DNA of 64,000 nt from Octopus vulgaris (lineage: Eukaryota), in NCBI GenBank assembly GCA_951406725.2, contig OX597825.1, positions 70,184,001-70,248,000 of the forward strand. Direction: 5' to 3'. Positions 10,002 to 61,000 of the stretch are shown piece after piece (position 1 is the stretch's first letter; every line of letters starts with the position of its first letter). The notes below the pieces were generated by a model. The model saw nothing but the letters and a program-made list of their open reading frames with translations, did not search any database and was not told where the DNA came from. The position numbers and the translations under genes were made by a program.

Positions 10002-10160
10002 TTACTCATCCCTATGAGTTTCCAACCAGGAATCTAGAAGTTGGTAAGTTAGTGTTTGTTTAGATGGTACTTTGTAACCGTCTTCGTGTTTGCCTTTAAT
10101 CATGAGTTCAGCTTCGGAGAAATGGAACCAAGTGGCATCTTTTAGTTCTTCTTCGTTAAC
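10002..10160 (-). CDS. NUDT12: NUDT12-like NAD(H) pyrophosphatase, last coding exon (VNEEELKDATWF...SWLETHRDE*)
   Basis: Acceptor ttttttgcag; 159 nt, phase 0; aligns with the NUDT12 C-terminus (VDKNEIEDARWF..VP..AHQLIKHW). Confidence 0.88.
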   Translation of the reverse strand, partial: VNEEELKDATWFHFSEAELMIKGKHEDGYKVPSKQTLTYQLLDSWLETHRDE

Positions 10161-10236: not shown

Positions 10237-10293
<57 letters not shown>

Positions 10294-10294
<1 letters not shown>

Positions 10295-10685
10295 ACCGGG
10301 CAAAATGCTTAACAGTATTTCGCTCGTCTTTACGCTCTGAGTTCAAATTCCGCCGAGGTCGACTTTGCCTTTCATCCTTTCGGGGTCGATTAAATAAGTA
10401 CCAGTTATGCAATGGGGTCGATGTAATCAACTTAATCCGTTTGTCTGTCCTTGTTTGTCCTCCCTGTGTTTAGCCCCTTGTGGGTAGTAAAGAAATAGGT
10501 ATTTCGTCTGCCGATACGTTTTCAGTTCAAAATTCCGCCGAGGTCGACTTTGCCTTTCATCCTTTCGGGGTCGATTAAATAACTACCAGTTACGCACTGG
10601 GGTCGATATAATCGACTTACTCCGTTTGTCTGTTCTTGTTTGTCCTCTCTGTGTTTAGCCCCTTGTGGGTAGTAAAGAAATAGGT
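10294..10685 (+). mobile_element. SINE family A dimer in the last NUDT12-like intron
   Basis: Two units with junction aaagaaata|ggtatttcgtc at ~10497. Confidence 0.9.
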
Positions 10686-10808
10686 TACTTTGTTATTGGC
10701 CTCTGTGTTTAGCCCCTTGTGGGTAGTAAAGAAATAGGTTGCTTTGTTATTGGCCTCTGTGTTTAGCCCCTTGTGAGTAGTAAAGAAATAGGTTGCTTTG
10801 TTATTGGC
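10647..10808. repeat. 54-bp unit x3 tandem repeat spanning the SINE A tail and flank
   Basis: ctctgtgtttagccccttgtgggtagtaaagaaataggttrctttgttattggc three times. Confidence 0.95.
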
Positions 10809-12701: not shown

Positions 12702-12782
12702 CGTATGTATGTATGTGTATATGAATAAAGGTATACATATATACATATTTATAATCAAGTACCCCAGAGGTTTTGTACCTAC

Positions 12783-12934
12783 CTTAACAACTTCGGTTGC
12801 CACATGAACAGTGCACCCGACCAGGAGTACCACAGGGTATGGCCACGGTTGGCTAGAATGATATTCAACTTTCACAACATCGAGACTCACTTGTTCCAAT
12901 ATTTCTCGCGTGCATGCATCTTCAATTGATTCAC
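12783..12934 (-). CDS. NUDT12: NUDT12-like exon with the second half of the Nudix box and SQPW motif ([18 protein letters not shown]...SQPWPYP...ATEVVK)
   Basis: Acceptor tttacaacag, donor aag|gtaggt; 152 nt (phase 1 to 0); SQPWP is the NudC/NUDT12 subfamily signature. Confidence 0.92.
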
Positions 12935-13015
12935 CTGTTGTAAAGAATACAAAAGACACATAGATATATACAGGTCGATAGACAGATAAACAGATAGACA
13001 TATTGATATATAACC

Positions 13016-13096
<81 letters not shown>

Positions 13097-13101
<5 letters not shown>

Positions 13102-13942
13102 GATATTATCAAACATTCATTCTGCATTGAAAATCTTTGCAGATGATTCCAAACTCCAGAAAGCCATAAACTGCATGGGAGATCGAACATGCCTTCAGTC
13201 AGATCTGTTTGCTGTTGTCCAAGGGGCAGAAAAAACAATATGCTTCTAAATGGAGATGAGTTTGATTTGATCCACTTTGGAAAAGAGGATACCCTGAAAT
13301 TACCGTAGGCTTTTCCCTCCGGCAACTCCCTAGCGTCATCCAACAACACCGGAGACCCTGGAATAATTGTTGATAACAATCTAAGCTGGAGTTCCCATGT
13401 AAACAGCAAGGTTGACTTGGCCCGCAGATTATGCTCTTGGATTCTGAGAACTTTCCAGTTTAGAGATGCCTATACCATCTCTGCTCAACTTTTTCCCGAC
13501 CCCACCTTGAATGCTGTTGCCCACTGTGCCCTCCCCCCATACGAAACAACTCATTATGAAGGTGGAAGCACGCCAGAGGTCAATAACAAGAAAGATAGAC
13601 GGCATGAGAGGCATTGACTATTGGGCTTGACTAAAAAAATCACAACATCTTTTCTCTCCAACGCCGCTGGGAACGCTACACCATTTGTGTGATGTGGAAA
13701 ATATTCCATCAATATTGCACAAATGATGTTGGCATCAATTTTGAAATCCACGCAATACTTGGCCCCCATGCTATCCGCCCACTACAAAAAATCGAACTCA
13801 GTACACATAGCAACATTACGTCACAACTACTTTACCTCAACCAGCTGTCTTGAATACCGTACGTCAAATACGTCAAAACGGAAACGGAGCCCATAAAATT
13901 CAAATGTTCATTGGACAAATTTCTTCAAAACATCCCGGACCT
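13097..13942 (+). mobile_element. CR1/L2-group LINE, 5'-truncated reverse transcriptase 3' fragment, antisense in an intron
   Basis: KIFADDSKL..LQSDL..NNMLLNGDEF..IHFG..PGIIVDNNLSWSSHV..SWILRTF..RPHLECC with stops and frameshifts. Confidence 0.9.
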
Positions 13943-14765
13943 ATTTTTTTTTTTTTTTTGTTAATGCCTCAAGAGAGGGCACTTTGACACCGTGGTTAAC
14001 ACGATAAATTGCTATAAATATTACAGAAAAGAAAACAAGAAACTAACTCTGAATATGCTTTTATGAATTTGAAATTCTAATTGCAAATAGATTATATTAT
14101 GCAGAGGGACCAGGACCAGAGTTACTACAAGCAAAATGAGTATCAGTAAATGTTATTGCGATGATGACAGTTTCTTCATGTTTGAAGATCATGAGGAAGA
14201 TCGGCACGGCCTCAATTGGCTATGAAAGCTGATCCTTGACGCTACTGGATTTTTCTTCATGTCTGTGCTTAGTAGTGTTAACATGAGACTCAATCAGTGC
14301 AGTCTGACCCCCACTCTTGAGTCTTGGAAATCTAAAGTGGTTCAGTGAGCTCGGACGGCTGTGGTGACCAGCAAGCTGTAGGTTTTACCTTGGAGTGGTC
14401 CCCACTTTCGTTGGTAAAATTACCTTACATGATTCAAGCTTTCCACCTATCATGGAATTACTGGAATGGAGTCAAAGAGAGCACCGGACCCCCTAAGGAA
14501 CTACACTCCTTGATTTGCTGTCAATTTGACCCTCCTCTAGTCTTTTACTTTCCCAAAGCATTTACAAGGCAGTGGGGATTGTGCTTGGAGTTCTTTCCAG
14601 TAACATAATAACTAACCGAAAGCCGGCAGCAAAGGTGCCTAAAAGAGGTAATTCGAAACTTCTAGAACCCTGGAACTCCTTAACCAGGATTTCACTAATG
14701 GATGCGGTTTAAGATCGTACCCATGGCATTAATATATTTACTCATACAATTTAACAGCAACAACA

Positions 14766-15135
14766 GTGGAGGCGCAATGGCCCAATGGCTAGAGCAGCGG
14801 ACTCGCGGTCGGAGGATCGCGGTTTCGATTCCCAGACCGGGCGTTGTGTGTGTTTATTGAGCAAAAACACCTCCACGAGGCTCCGGCAGGGAGTGGTGAC
14901 GACCCCTGTTGTACTCTTTCGCTCCAACTTTCTCTCACTCTTTCTTCCTGTTTCTTATCCACGACTTCCTACGCAACCGCTGAGCCTGGACGCGCATTCA
15001 TCCATCCGTCGATGCTCTCGGTGTCGGGGGTTGACCTGCTTTCTCTTCTGCGGGTCTTACGAATAGCAAAGGACCACGTTTCTGACTTCTCCTACTCTGG
15101 GACGAAGACTGCTTCGCTCAACAGCAACAACAACA
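14766..15135 (+). mobile_element. SINE family C, tail type 2, (CAA)n end
   Basis: gtggaggcgcaatggccc head, ggtttcgattccc B-box; tail matches 27262-27420. Confidence 0.9.
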
Positions 15136-15171
15136 ACAACAAGAATAAGAACAAGAAAGTTGACATCTTAC

Positions 15172-15315
15172 CAGGTTCGATATAACCAGAGACACAGAAG
15201 AACATATTGGAGGGGAAATTTTTCTTGAGCCCCATCAGACAGTGAGTTTGGGAAGAATTGACGACAAGAACTACAACATTAGGGTCCACACGTGGGTAGT
15301 TCGTATTCAATAAAC
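15172..15315 (-). CDS. NUDT12: NUDT12-like exon (GLLNTNYPRVDPNVVVLV...MFFCVSGYIEPG)
   Basis: Acceptor ttctccttcag, donor g|gtaaga; 144 nt, phase 1-1; YPRVDP motif and start of the Nudix box. Confidence 0.92.
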
Positions 15316-15390: not shown

Positions 15391-15795
15391 TTCTTTCTTA
15401 GCGACAGGGGGCTAAACATAGAGGGGACAGACAAACGGATCAAGTCGATTACATCGACCCCAGTGCGTAACTGGTACTTAATTTATCGACCCCGAAAGGA
15501 TGAAAAGTAAAGTCGACCTCGGCGGAATTTGAACTCAGAACATAGCGGCAGACGAAACACCTATTTCTTTACTATCCACAAGGGGCTAAACACAGGCAGG
15601 ACAAACAAGGACAGATAAACGGATTAAGTCGATTACATCAACATCAGTCCGTAACTGGTACTTAATTTATCGACCCCGAAAGGATGAAAAGTAAAGTCGA
15701 CCTCGGCGGAATTTGAACTCAGAACGTAGCAACGGGCGAAATACCGCGAAGCACTTCGCCCGGCGTGCTAACGTCTCTACCAGCTCGCCGCCTTT
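15391..15795 (-). mobile_element. SINE family A dimer
   Basis: Reverse-complement dimer, junction at ~15561. Confidence 0.9.
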
Positions 15796-16059
15796 ACATT
15801 TGTATATATTATATTTGTATGCATTTGTCATTGCTGTGTGTGCGTGCGTGTGTGTGTGTGAGAAAGAGACAGAGAGTGTGTGTGTGTATGTGTATGTGTG
15901 TGCGTGTTTGTGTGTGTTCGTGTGTGTGTGTGTGCGTGCGTATATGTGTGCACGTGTGTGTGCGCGCGCGTATGTGTGTGTGTATTTGTGTTTGCGTATG
16001 AGTGTGTGTGTGTGTGTGTGTCTGTACGTGTGTGTGAGCGTATGTGTGGGTGTGTGAGG

Positions 16060-16314: not shown

Positions 16315-17021
16315 CTGATCGACTCAAACATTTTCCGTTAGTGCATTCTCGTTTAAGTCCGGCGTCTTCCGGGATCGTTCGGCAACCGCAGGTGGGGCAG
16401 AATTGGTGGTCCATGTGCCACAAAATCAACGAACAAGCTTCAGAAAAGATACACCTCTCGTATTCATTCAAATTCAAAAAAGCAGGGAAAGGTGATACGA
16501 AGTGACCATTGGGCAAGATACTCTCAAGTTTATCTTTGTCCATCGAAGACACATCAATAGCGAACCATGCACGGTCTTTCTTTGATTGTTCGTTTTTCGT
16601 CTGAAGTGGTTCCGTTCCTAAAAAGATGTTCAATGATTTTTCTTCGTTCAAAAAAAAATCGATATCTTTATAACTAGCCGCGATTAGTTGATGTCTCTGA
16701 GGTGTATCGTCGTTAGATTGTTTTTCTGGTGAAACATAGATTTGAAGATCTGAAAATAAAAGGAATTGAGTGCTGGCGTCCTTCTTCTTGGTATCCAGCC
16801 ATAGAAGATCTTTCCGTTTGTCTGAGCAGCGTTGTAAGACATTGAACGAAACGTGTTTCTTCTCCAGGTTTTCTATAAGAGGTTTGTTGCTCTCGTTAGA
16901 AATCGATGATCTCGGGGATGAGCTCTCGTTACTCAGTATAGAAGCAATTCTTTTTCTACTCCATATTTTGGCAATGTCAGCAGCAGTGTGGCCTCCGTTC
17001 GTCTGCAGATCACTTCTACAC
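16315..17021 (-). CDS. NUDT12: NUDT12-like large exon: end of ankyrin region, NudC N-terminal domain and Zn ribbon (CPTCG...CTNGKC)
   Basis: Acceptor ttttcttgtatttgatcag, donor tcag|gttcgt; 707 nt open; HTAADIAKIW, LQRCSDKRKD..WL, FLLFSDL, IFLG, AWFA, WH..QFCPTCG..GLKREC match the NUDT12 layout. Confidence 0.92.
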
Positions 17022-17423: not shown

Positions 17424-18411
17424 ATAGAGAGAGAGACGCAAATATTCACACAGCCATATTTGTATATATATGTGTATACATATGTATGTGTATAAATAGA
17501 TGTATGTATATACATGTAAGGTGAAAGAGAGAGAGAGAAAGAGAGAGACTTATAATTCAAAAAAGCATACACCCTGGGTGAAATAAACAAAATCAATAAT
17601 TAGTTTAACAGACGTTTTCTTTAAGTAGCGATAAAATCACTCAGCTATGAAATACCACTTATTTTGTCATAAGTAAACATCCTTAATTAGTTTTACAGTT
17701 ACATTTACTCACAAACAAGCAAATTATTATAAGTTAACTAATGTTCATCAAAACAACAATATTTACAAACACTTTACGATAAAGGAACTTGACTAAAAAA
17801 CCGAGGAAAATATCTTAGATAAGCAGACAAAACTAAATAAACAAAAAAAATACGCCCGTAACTCCTTATCAATAAACACAAGAAAAAGAACCACCACTCC
17901 ACAAAAATAAACACTCGTGAGGCAGAAAAATAACATCAATCAGCAAACGTCAGACAATAAACAAAAGCATGAGATTCATACGGAAAACAATTAATATAAA
18001 CACACAACCAAACTGAGTAGTTAGAGATCTCGCCTGCGGATGGTAGTAGCGTGAAACTCGAGTCAAAAGTCAAACATCTGGTTAACCCTTGAAAAGCTGA
18101 CATCACCAATTGATGTTTCAAAAGGTTTTCGTAGATATGGCCATGTATCCAAGCCCGAGCGTCTTCTTCGTCAAATGTGCCAAAACGCAAGCGGCTCTTA
18201 TCGATGGAGAGATGAATTCGCAAATAGATGATGATCATGATGATGCTATAGATAGTGCAAAAGAAACCGATACTTCAACTAGCTCTGGATAGAAAAAAAT
18301 GCCCTGATTTTCTTCATGTGAACATTCGTTTCACGTCAACAATGCCGGAATCTCAAATGACTTTATGTTCACACAGATGCGGAGAATAGCGAATATTTTA
18401 CGGTTCTTTTC

Positions 18412-18705
18412 AATAATTCTCTCGACCTTGCTCCTTCAGTTTACTATTTCTTTCGTAGTTTAAAGAATCATTTGGGAGATATAACTTTCGCAAGCCAGGA
18501 GGAAGTCGAAACTGACATTTCAGAGTTCTTTGCTTTGAAACCAAAAGAGTTTTACATTGATAGGATTAAAAATCTTGTAAATAGATGGAAGGAAGTCCTA
18601 GATTATCAGGGAAAGTACGTTGATGATTAAATTTCAATTAAATATAACATTTGATCACTTGTTTTCTTTATTCAAAATTCGGACAGAACTTATGGGATGA
18701 CCTGA
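18412..18705 (+). mobile_element. mariner transposon 3' remnant with right TIR
   Basis: SLDLAPSVYYFFRSLKNHL..F...EVETDISEFFALKPKEFYIDRIKNLVNRWKEVLDYQGKYVDD* (YSPDLAP motif region), then TIR-like ggacagaacttatgggatgacctga + TA. Confidence 0.9.
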
Positions 18706-44623: not shown

Positions 44624-44998
44624 TAGTTTTATTTTTATAACGTGCTTTCACTTCACTACCGAGCGCAGCTCTGTGTGCCTTGAGCATGTGCTGTGGTTTG
44701 TTGTGATGCTCTTATGGTTACTGTATTGAAAGTGTTTTATGTTCTATGTGTGCAGTGCCCAGTAGTGCAATTTTCTGTATGTTATACATATTTGTAAGTC
44801 CTGATGTTTTTGTTATGTATTTGTCTGAAAATTTTTTTATCATACCTAATGCGCCTACTATGGTAGGAATTGTTTCTGTTTTTAGATTCCACATTCGAGT
44901 TACCAGGTTTTTGTATTTTTGTATTTTGAAAGTTTTTCCATTTCTTCTAGAGAAACGTTGTCATCTGCTGTTATTGATGCATCAATTAGAAAGCATTT
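44621..44998 (-). mobile_element. R4/Dong-type non-LTR retrotransposon 3' end inserted in (TAA)n
   Basis: CFLIDASITADDNVSLEEMEKLSKYK / VTRMWNLKTETIPTIVGALGMIKK..NIQKIALLGTAHI..TLSIQ*; (TTA)n on both sides. Confidence 0.9.
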
Positions 44999-53828: not shown

Positions 53829-54490
53829 AGATGGTGTGGCCATATTGTTCGAATGGCGGATGGACGCTAGCAGAAACAGCTATTTTATGGTGAGATTGAA
53901 GAGGGGAGACACTATCGGCTTAAACCTGAAAAAATGTTCTAAGGGCGGCATAAGAACTACTATCAAGTCACTTGGAATGGATCTAGAAGAAACCCTTGCT
54001 CTGGATCGATTTGGATCTCGAACAAAAGTGTGAAGTGGAGTGAAAGCATTTGAAGAGGCCAGGATAACGCATGTAAGACTCAAAAGAGATCTAAGGAAGA
54101 ACGTTACGATCGAGAAAGTGAGTGACAATGACCTTTTTGTGTGCAGAGTTTGTGACAGACCATACCTTTCTTTTGCTGGGCTCAAATCTCATCTGCGAAC
54201 CCATGGAAAACGAACCTCCACCAACTATTCTGCCTATATGTCTGTTCACACCTTTGACTGCAGTGTATGCCAGAAGGTTTGCATATCTAACGGAGGCCTC
54301 AAAAGACATATTAAGATCTACAGAGATCAGGACTTATCTGTAGCTCTTGGTGGTCCAAATCAGGTGTGCAAGCTATGTGTCTTTTCAGAACATTCTCTAG
54401 TTTAAAAAGCCACATCAGATGCCATGATGGTGCTAAGGTTGTAGGTACAGGGAGATGGTCAAACTCTGCTTAAGGAGTAGACAACCACCA
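53829..54490 (+). mobile_element. RTE-clade LINE 3' fragment with three C2H2 zinc fingers, between (TA)n tracts
   Basis: RWCGHIVRMADGR*QKQLFYGE..ETLALDR..GVKAFEEAR; CRVC..LKSHLRTH, CSVC..LKRHIKIY, CKLC../LKSHIRCH. Confidence 0.88.
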
Positions 54491-60249: not shown

Positions 60250-60500
60250 AGAAGATAGCGAGTTTAGAATTTTAAGCAATTTCTCCTCTTCTAAGGACCG
60301 AATGCTGGAGCTGGGGCATTGCTGTTCTAGCAACTGCAATTCTACGGTCCAAATCAGCTTCCTGCTTCCCATCACCCGTGAATACGGCTCCGAGATATTT
60401 AAACTTCTCCACTTGTCTCAGTAATGCTCCACTAACATGGAAAGACTTTCTTGAGAGGGCCAGTGTCTCTGTCTTTGCAATACTAATTCTCATTCCTGTC
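60250..60500 (-). mobile_element. RTE-clade LINE reverse transcriptase fragment
   Basis: GMRISIAKTETL..LRQVEKFKYLGAVFTGDGKQEADLDRRIAVARTAM. Confidence 0.88.
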
Positions 60501-60523
60501 TTGTGTGTGTGTGTGTGTATGTA

Positions 60524-60575
<52 letters not shown>

Positions 60576-61000
60576 TGTGTGTGTATTATATCCGTTCTTC
60601 CATTCTGTGTTGAGTGTTTAGTCATTCAATATCCTTCTCACACCGTCCTTTTGGCCAGTTAAACAATCAGTTAATCAATTAATTAATCATTTAGTCCGTC
60701 AGTCGTTTAGTCAATTGTCTGTAAATCCGTACATAGATCAGTCAATCAGTTTATCAGTCAATCAATTATGTGATCAATAAATCATTCAGCGAATTAGTCG
60801 ACAACGAGTTGTCGACAGCAGGATTAACAGCTTCAGAAGAGTTGGTACGAATTCGTTTGAAGAACGAGAGTCTAGTTCCAGTCGTTTATATTATTAATGC
60901 AGCTAGACGACCGTCTGGACACAGAACCTCTTCTGACAATGGAGACAAACAAACACACACACAAAATCTTTCACACACACACACACACTCACTTACACAT

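Follow-up and report, generated by a model that had tools for sequence, protein, structure and literature searches.

Glutamine at a metal-binding position of the Nudix box in octopus and cuttlefish NUDT12: a candidate pseudo-enzyme

Four of the seven coding exons of the NUDT12 gene of Octopus vulgaris lie on the minus strand of the window considered here, a stretch of 64,000 nucleotides (GenBank assembly GCA_951406725.2, contig OX597825.1, positions 70,184,001 to 70,248,000 of the forward strand; positions below are counted from its first letter). Exons 1 to 3 lie past the window's end on the same contig, up to about 41 kb beyond it. The gene is intact and spliced: its seven coding exons, bounded by GT-AG sites, give an open frame of 518 amino acids, identical to residues 1-518 of protein record P0008. 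That record is listed as Octopus vulgaris and may be the annotation of this same assembly, so it is not counted as independent. In organisms ranging from bacteria to mammals, NudC-type enzymes cleave nicotinamide adenine dinucleotide, NAD(H), as well as NAD caps. Position 20 of their Nudix box is glutamate in every non-coleoid relative examined. The octopus protein has glutamine there.

Read along the minus strand, exon 1 (window-equivalent 105271-105119; G000:C12:70289271-70289119), exon 2 (window-equivalent 89345-89207; G000:C12:70273345-70273207) and exon 3 (window-equivalent 73167-73065) encode an N-terminal extension and ankyrin repeats. Exon 4 (16315..17021) supplies residues 133-368: the last ankyrin repeat, the N-terminal pseudo-Nudix subdomain (NTD) and most of a Zn ribbon, whose cysteines C340, C343, C358 and C363 (16328..16399), placed by the PF09297 match and a conservation table, are present in 5/5 coleoids. 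Exon 5 (15172..15315; residues 368-416) carries the YPRVDP motif with the adenine-stacking Tyr374, the coleoid residues Phe407 and Ser410, and the start of the Nudix box. Ser410 (codon 15188..15190) replaces the alanine equivalent to mouse Nudt12 Ala354, and Arg397, in the same exon, is lost in octopods. The rest of the box, SQPWP and Leu453 come from exon 6 (12783..12934; residues 416-466). Exon 7 (10002..10160) provides residues 467-518 and the stop codon TAA, including Glu471, the retained equivalent of the mouse metal ligand Glu415, and the C-terminus HRDE. The 23-residue Nudix box, residues 411-433, is interrupted by a GT-AG intron (15171-12935). Its position 20 is encoded by CAA (12893-12891; Gln430, equivalent to mouse Glu374 and E. 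coli NudC Glu178) and its position 22 by AGT (12887-12885; Ser). The CAA codon, the open frames, the splice sites, the four Zn cysteines, YPRVDP and SQPWP had all been reported in the original prediction, made from the sequence alone, and a fresh reading bears them out.

By architecture, tree and copy number the octopus gene is NUDT12. In the coleoid records P0006, P0002 and P0210, Pfam finds N-terminal ankyrin repeats, then a NUDIX-like NTD, the Zn ribbon and a NUDIX domain; the NTD model PF09296 scores under its cut-off in the coleoid proteins. These proteins form a clade with 100% support and a long stem, inside the animal NUDT12 group (97). The trees, which contained no named NUDT13, leave the sister group of the coleoids unsettled, and a grouping with other mollusc-like proteins is not rejected (approximately unbiased test, p-AU 0.29, with 24/34 rows used).

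Two contigs that skip the introns, X7 record 14 and X8 record 19, come from runs of different studies and match exon 6 with 0 other letters over 12781-12932. A contig from organism B (X16) has one other letter across the exon, at a place that is not listed, and no exon-6 piece is listed for run X2. The source runs are labelled "RNA?", which is a guess, none being on record as RNA, and depth was not used. Since intron-skipping contigs of two studies agree and the records of four other species have glutamine as well, Gln430 is not a sequencing error. Two read differences were seen in exon 4, one synonymous and one A214V, too few for any inference of rate.

Some gene models differ from this structure. 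P0008 adds a last exon at 3333-3214 (minus strand) that lengthens the C-terminus; contigs X2 record 7 and X8 record 19 continue past the TAA at 10004-10002 into 3' sequence, and the added exon may be a minor isoform or an annotation artefact. The O. bimaculoides model P0009, in which most ankyrin repeats are missing, begins with a stretch that matches 18223-18125 (minus strand); this segment is possibly an alternative first exon of a short isoform, or a mis-annotation. The O. sinensis record P0001 is without exon 3, the middle ankyrin repeat, at residues of about 98-103, probably owing to a gap in annotation or assembly.

The glutamine is not peculiar to one octopus. It is found in O. sinensis (P0001), O. 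bimaculoides (P0006, P0009), Argonauta hians (P0002) and the cuttlefish Sepia pharaonis (P0210), so that all five coleoid species sampled share it. Position 20 is Gln in 5/5 full-length coleoid proteins and Glu in 83/83 non-coleoid NudC-type relatives (51/51 after thinning at 80% identity), a contrast that chance does not explain. The 83 are what remains of 217 stored proteins when 100 matched the catalytic region, 89 of them non-coleoid, and 6 without the box columns were set aside; unnamed proteins holding only exon 4, without the box (P0033, P0187, P0188, P0211, P0212), were likewise excluded from the counts. The coleoid sample consists of octopods and cuttlefish, with Nautilus, Vampyroteuthis and squids outside it, and within the species sampled the change is coleoid-wide. 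Its presence in octopods and Sepia means that it is most simply older than the octopod-decapod split, roughly 270 million years ago. The original prediction also drew attention to the serine at box position 22. It is there in the octopus but it is not fixed: the five coleoids have S, N, S, N and H, sharing only the lost glycine, and serine at this position was rejected as a meaningful feature.

What the altered residue does can be seen in mouse Nudt12. According to excerpts of bioRxiv 10.1101/474478, Glu374 and the carbonyl of Ala354 bind Mg1, Glu370 binds Mg2 and Mg3, and Glu415 binds Mg1 and Mg2; the attacking hydroxide bridges Mg2 and Mg3, and the adenine is sandwiched by Phe356 and by Tyr318 of the other subunit. 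By alignment these residues are, in the octopus, Gln430 (Glu374), Ser410 (Ala354), Glu426 (Glu370), Glu471 (Glu415), Tyr412 (Phe356) and Tyr374 (Tyr318). The claim that the position-20 glutamate is a metal ligand is thus upheld. The same excerpts describe the dead mouse mutant as the double E373Q/E374Q, so the effect of the single change is proven only in E. coli NudC, where E178Q leaves activity on NAD almost undetectable, though not zero, and strongly lowers activity on NAD-RNA (PMC5034116). That mutant was crystallised with NAD bound (PMC5034116), and its chain, 5ISY, aligns its glutamine to Gln430 of the octopus; the wild type, 5IW4, has glutamate there. The equivalence drawn in the original prediction with the nearly inactive E178Q therefore holds. 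Two further facts bear on function: the mouse ankyrin domain is required for the deNADding of RNA and not for NAD hydrolysis (bioRxiv 10.1101/474478, excerpts), and bleomycin hydrolase, a known mammalian partner, places Nudt12 in cytoplasmic granules (review PMC9283932, excerpts).

The original prediction missed that the change is coleoid-wide and that it is accompanied by other changes in the pocket, by loss of the end resembling a peroxisomal targeting signal type 1 (PTS1) and by a new N-terminal extension. In the catalytic C-terminal domain (CTD), 35 positions reach 90% conservation or more among non-coleoids. Coleoids differ at 7 to 9 of them, against a mean of 1.5 departures and a maximum of 8 when each of 51 non-coleoids is left out in turn. 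Four departures are common to all five coleoids: Phe407, Ser410, Gln430 and Leu453 (S407F, A410S, E430Q and M453L). Both Mg1 residues, Gln430 and Ser410, are among these four. Ser410 is found in 5/5 coleoids and 5/83 others, and position 453 is leucine in 5/5 coleoids and methionine in 83/83 others. Much else is kept. E417, R425, E426, E429, E471 and W446 are retained in all five coleoids (the list takes in box positions 7, 15, 16 and 19 and mouse Glu415), as are the adenine-stacking aromatics Tyr374 and Tyr/Phe412. Of the nicotinamide cavity (NudC I132, Q192, W194 and M201), W446 is kept, V382 and L453 are conservative, and Q444 is kept in octopods and is leucine in Sepia. The NADH-hydrolase signature SQPWPFPxS reads SQPWPYP in octopods, with the final serine replaced by valine, and SLPWPYP in Sepia.

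In the coleoid protein the catalytic domain is no longer conserved beyond the rest, as it usually is: it now diverges at the pace of the non-catalytic N-terminal subdomain. Octopus and Sepia agree at 82/140 CTD and 81/146 NTD positions (p 0.63); two bivalve-like proteins agree at 119/140 against 70/144 (p 6e-11). The CTD exceeds the NTD by 10 to 40 points in 23/23 non-coleoid pairs of similar NTD identity, pairs that share members and so are not independent. Measured on an assumed tree of 12 taxa, the distance from Octopus to Sepia is 0.41 for the ankyrin region, 0.80 for the NTD and 0.81 for the CTD; the bivalve pair has 0.67, 1.23 and 0.19. With the tree fixed, the CTD branch leading from the mollusc node measures 1.23 for Octopus and 0.23-0.31 for three other mollusc-like proteins. 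Constraint persists overall, with 159/328 columns invariant among four species.

The two ends of the protein differ from those of its relatives as well. Coleoid C-termini are HRDE, HRVE, VPLI and NHIC, none of them PTS1-like; three mollusc-like proteins end in TANL, and 31/51 non-coleoids fit a PTS1-like pattern. At the other end, exons 1 and 2 encode an extension of about 75 residues that only the coleoid proteins show; it contains a QWxWxCRxH-like stretch, which is conserved, and a helix is predicted in it (residues 55-73 of P0006; predicted local distance difference test, pLDDT, near 68). It matches no Pfam family, and the N-terminal 95 residues gave no usable Atlas match. The NUDT12 records of Lingula (P0015) and Lineus (P0022) have short N-terminal extensions of their own that, by eye, resemble mitochondrial presequences; both also end in PTS1-like tripeptides, a possible case of dual targeting.

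Is there another gene in the octopus that could do the work of NUDT12? No second NudC-type gene was found in the O. vulgaris genome by any query, with top candidates scored and the assembly possibly gapped. The queries were exon 5, Pinctada NUDT12, Tegillarca NUDT12, the models PF00293, PF09297 and NF001299, and P0074, this last in a stricter first look. The two bivalve proteins matched only the four catalytic exons of the present gene, ankyrin hits and one stretch with stops (E=4.3). All four matches of the NudC family model NF001299 fall in this gene, and the Zn-ribbon model PF09297 exceeds its cut-off only at this locus. PF00293 found eight other Nudix loci, none NudC-like on reading, and missed this gene itself, which makes it an insensitive search. 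The bivalve and family-model queries serve as their own positive control: the octopus copy, diverged as it is, was detected at identities of 30-53%, so a canonical one should be easier to detect. NUDT13 was not found with the bivalve NUDT12 and NudC-family queries; no named NUDT13 query was used and its loss is unproven. Searches of protein records turned up no canonical NUDT12 under a cephalopod name, and a metagenome scan gave no related loci. Two companion genes are present: a DXO/Rai1 gene (G000:C21:35967724-35977867, plus strand), with its acidic motifs in open exons, and a gene of the bleomycin-hydrolase type, BLMH (G000:C30:11684637-11704916, minus strand).

A homodimer of O. bimaculoides residues 200-532 was predicted with a score of 0.84, against 0.00 for the best control; the runs agree on 88% or more of their contacts, and pLDDT is 86 or higher. 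The mark for that score is reached by 21/30 solved homodimers and 0/23 single chains (17/29 and 0/30 among eukaryotes), by 7/16 animal dimers and by 1/7 without an older solved relative; since like dimers have already been solved, the pass may reflect memory. A monomer model from a 65-row alignment (pLDDT 82; a 6-row alignment gave 48 and was unusable) finds mammalian NUDT12 as its best match in a fold search (E 8e-35). It superposes on 6O3P at a root-mean-square deviation of about 15 A and a template-modelling score (TM) of 0.53, probably from a different arrangement of NTD and CTD, and given this poor fit it was not used for the geometry of the pocket.

I propose that coleoid NUDT12 is a pseudo-enzyme: it would go on forming dimers and would grip an RNA cap or NAD(H)-type dinucleotide by the adenine end, but no longer cut it. 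I rate this an even call; that the canonical activity is strongly impaired is a good deal safer, and probably true. With Mg1 lost, the pyrophosphate would not be positioned for attack and hydrolysis would stall, as in NudC E178Q. The neutral Gln430 might let the diphosphate sit in the pocket, with adenine stacked by two aromatics, Tyr374 from one subunit and Tyr/Phe412 from its mate. Through the ankyrin repeats, the RNA or nucleotide held there might be connected to a partner in the cytosol, of which bleomycin hydrolase, whose gene is present, is the mammalian example, and DXO could take over the removal of NAD caps.

Several observations pull the other way. The nicotinamide subsite has drifted (I382V in octopods, M453L in all five coleoids, Ser451 to Val or Ala, Q444L in Sepia), so NAD may not be the ligand. 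Conservation of the ankyrin region above that of the CTD is significant only between Octopus and Argonauta (p 0.019), not between Octopus and Sepia (p 0.15). Loss of the PTS1 is not unique, none being predicted in zebrafish Nudt12 and the human signal being weak (PMC8919083, excerpts). The retained E426 and E471, outside the predicted dimer surface, would fit residual or redirected catalysis as well, and what a single E-to-Q change does is known by analogy with NudC, where "almost undetectable" is not zero.

A stronger form of the idea, close to that of the original prediction, makes coleoid NUDT12 a putative NAD-cap reader, clamping NAD-capped RNAs or sensing NAD(H) in the cytosol and handing the RNAs on through its ankyrin repeats to a partner. 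The altered nicotinamide subsite makes this less likely, as does the report, in excerpts of bioRxiv 10.64898/2026.06.03.730015, that NudC E178Q co-purifies RNA resembling total RNA, without selectivity for the cap, and I consider it quite doubtful. The original prediction thus stands in part: an intact, expressed and likely impaired protein fits, and reading specific to NAD caps is weakened.

The main rival is that the enzyme has been remodelled, not disabled: relying on two metals (Mg2 and Mg3), or on Mn2+, it would act on another or slower substrate, such as a different cap or dinucleotide, with Gln430 and Ser410 binding phosphate in place of Mg1. In its favour, the six conserved residues listed above are kept in all five coleoids, and the nucleophile bridges the two metals whose ligands remain (bioRxiv 10.1101/474478, excerpts). 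Gln430 and Ser410 became fixed jointly and have not changed since, while other box residues nearby vary. Substituted boxes do occur in active Nudix enzymes, for example the GDP-mannose hydrolases, but the noncanonical boxes of active enzymes shown in excerpts of PMC5389931 keep the position-20 glutamate, and E178Q nearly abolishes the activity of NudC. The genome searches turned up no other NudC-type gene that could take on the task. A working enzyme held by its substrate would not be expected to lose the extra conservation of its CTD. On balance I find a remodelled hydrolase somewhat unlikely; it keeps its weight because E426 and E471 are invariant outside the interface.

About equally unlikely is a pure scaffold, a dimer that only displays its pair of ankyrin domains and the new N-terminal helix to protein partners and whose pocket binds nothing in particular. 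Of the 35 conserved CTD positions, 15/17 in the predicted dimer surface are kept against 8/18 elsewhere (p 0.012, post hoc), a contrast that counts for the pseudo-enzyme too, but over all columns the enrichment at the interface is not significant (33/56 vs 125/267, p 0.11). Within coleoids no domain evolves more slowly than the ankyrin region. A ligand-free scaffold keeps weight because drift in the pocket has taken separate paths, R397L/V and I382V in octopods, Q444L and G396A in cuttlefish. Against it, Gln430, Ser410, E426, W446 and E471 are invariant though they are not interface residues, and an unconstrained site would be expected to wander since the octopod-decapod split.

Very improbable is the suggestion, made in the original prediction, of a decaying duplicate, or of a partner that dampens an active NUDT12 encoded elsewhere in the genome. 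The genome search scored the best candidates only, in an assembly that may be incomplete, and the CTD does evolve fast. However, the bivalve and NudC-family queries gave only this gene, frames are open in five species, contigs skip the intron, and nearly half of the columns are invariant; with no second NudC-type gene found and the glutamine shared with cuttlefish, both ideas are unsupported. An artefact, or recoding of the codon to glutamate in RNA, is refuted, for although coleoids edit RNA heavily, A-to-I editing of CAA gives Gln or Arg and never Glu, spliced contigs of two studies match exon 6 exactly, and four other species share the glutamine.

If NUDT12 is a pseudo-enzyme in coleoids, then octopuses and cuttlefish have retained it for a very long time without its chemistry, which would reveal that NUDT12 has a job other than catalysis, perhaps in mammals too. 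The turnover of NADH and the removal of NAD caps would be wired differently in these animals, the protein might be a natural trap for NAD-capped RNA, and the database names "NAD-capped RNA hydrolase" and "NAD(+) diphosphatase" given to the coleoid proteins would be wrong. Were the doubtful cap-reader idea correct, it would be the first natural NAD-cap reader of an animal, in a lineage then without a working NudC-type enzyme.

In several RNA-like runs, contig depths sum to more than 100,000 over intronic repeats resembling short interspersed nuclear elements, at about 10290-10775 and 15410-15900 of the window, presumably because the transcriptome contains many copies. Short frames at 18361-18627 (plus), 13202-13614, 44721-44960 (minus), 54034-54402 (plus) and 60275-60625 (minus) resemble, by their motifs, remnants of mariner transposase, of the reverse transcriptase and endonuclease of long interspersed nuclear elements (LINE), and of C2H2 fingers.

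How does coleoid NUDT12 compare with what is known? A literature search that did not cover most subscription papers gave no study of cephalopod NUDT12, none by title on NAD-capping in cephalopods and, among the titles listed as matches, no natural pseudo-enzyme of the NudC subfamily; natural Nudix pseudo-enzymes are already known, a NudC-type one was not found in the literature searched. The closest known counterpart is mammalian NUDT12 (PDB 6O3P, mouse; 6SCX, human; best sequence match E 4e-66), which has the same layout of ankyrin repeats, NTD, Zn ribbon and Nudix CTD, together with YPRVDP, SQPWP, the equivalents of E370 and E415 and the adenine-stacking aromatics. The octopus protein departs from it in having Gln for E374, Ser for A354, Leu for M397 and Val for S395, in the loss of the GR-motif arginine in octopods, in its extension of about 75 residues, in lacking a PTS1-like end and in a CTD that is no longer the most conserved domain.

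Other Nudix folds have given up catalysis. The NUDT9-H domain of vertebrate TRPM2 is a natural, lineage-wide loss of Nudix-box catalysis with ligand binding kept (PMC6461439, excerpts); it differs in being an ADP-ribose domain on an ion channel that loses the position-16 glutamate, and active soluble NUDT9 remains, in contrast to the octopus, for which no active paralogue was found. NrtR repressors, the Nudix-homology domain of DBC1/CCAR2 and NUDT21 (CFIm25) are non-catalytic folds used for ligand sensing or RNA binding (PMC6800001 and PMC5389931, excerpts), but they belong to other subfamilies with far more degenerate boxes, none of them NudC-type; in the M. smegmatis NrtR a triple reversion failed to restore activity (PMC6800001, excerpts). 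E. coli CsdA, reported to read NAD caps, resembles the proposed role in binding the cap without removing it (bioRxiv 10.64898/2026.06.03.730015, excerpts), but it is an unrelated bacterial DEAD-box helicase, and its role was measured where that of octopus NUDT12 is inferred. An engineered precedent is E. coli NudC E178Q (PDB 5ISY), which has glutamine at the equivalent position and binds NAD while hardly cleaving it (PMC5034116). The coleoid change is natural, fixed in five species, accompanied by other changes in the pocket and fused to ankyrin repeats.

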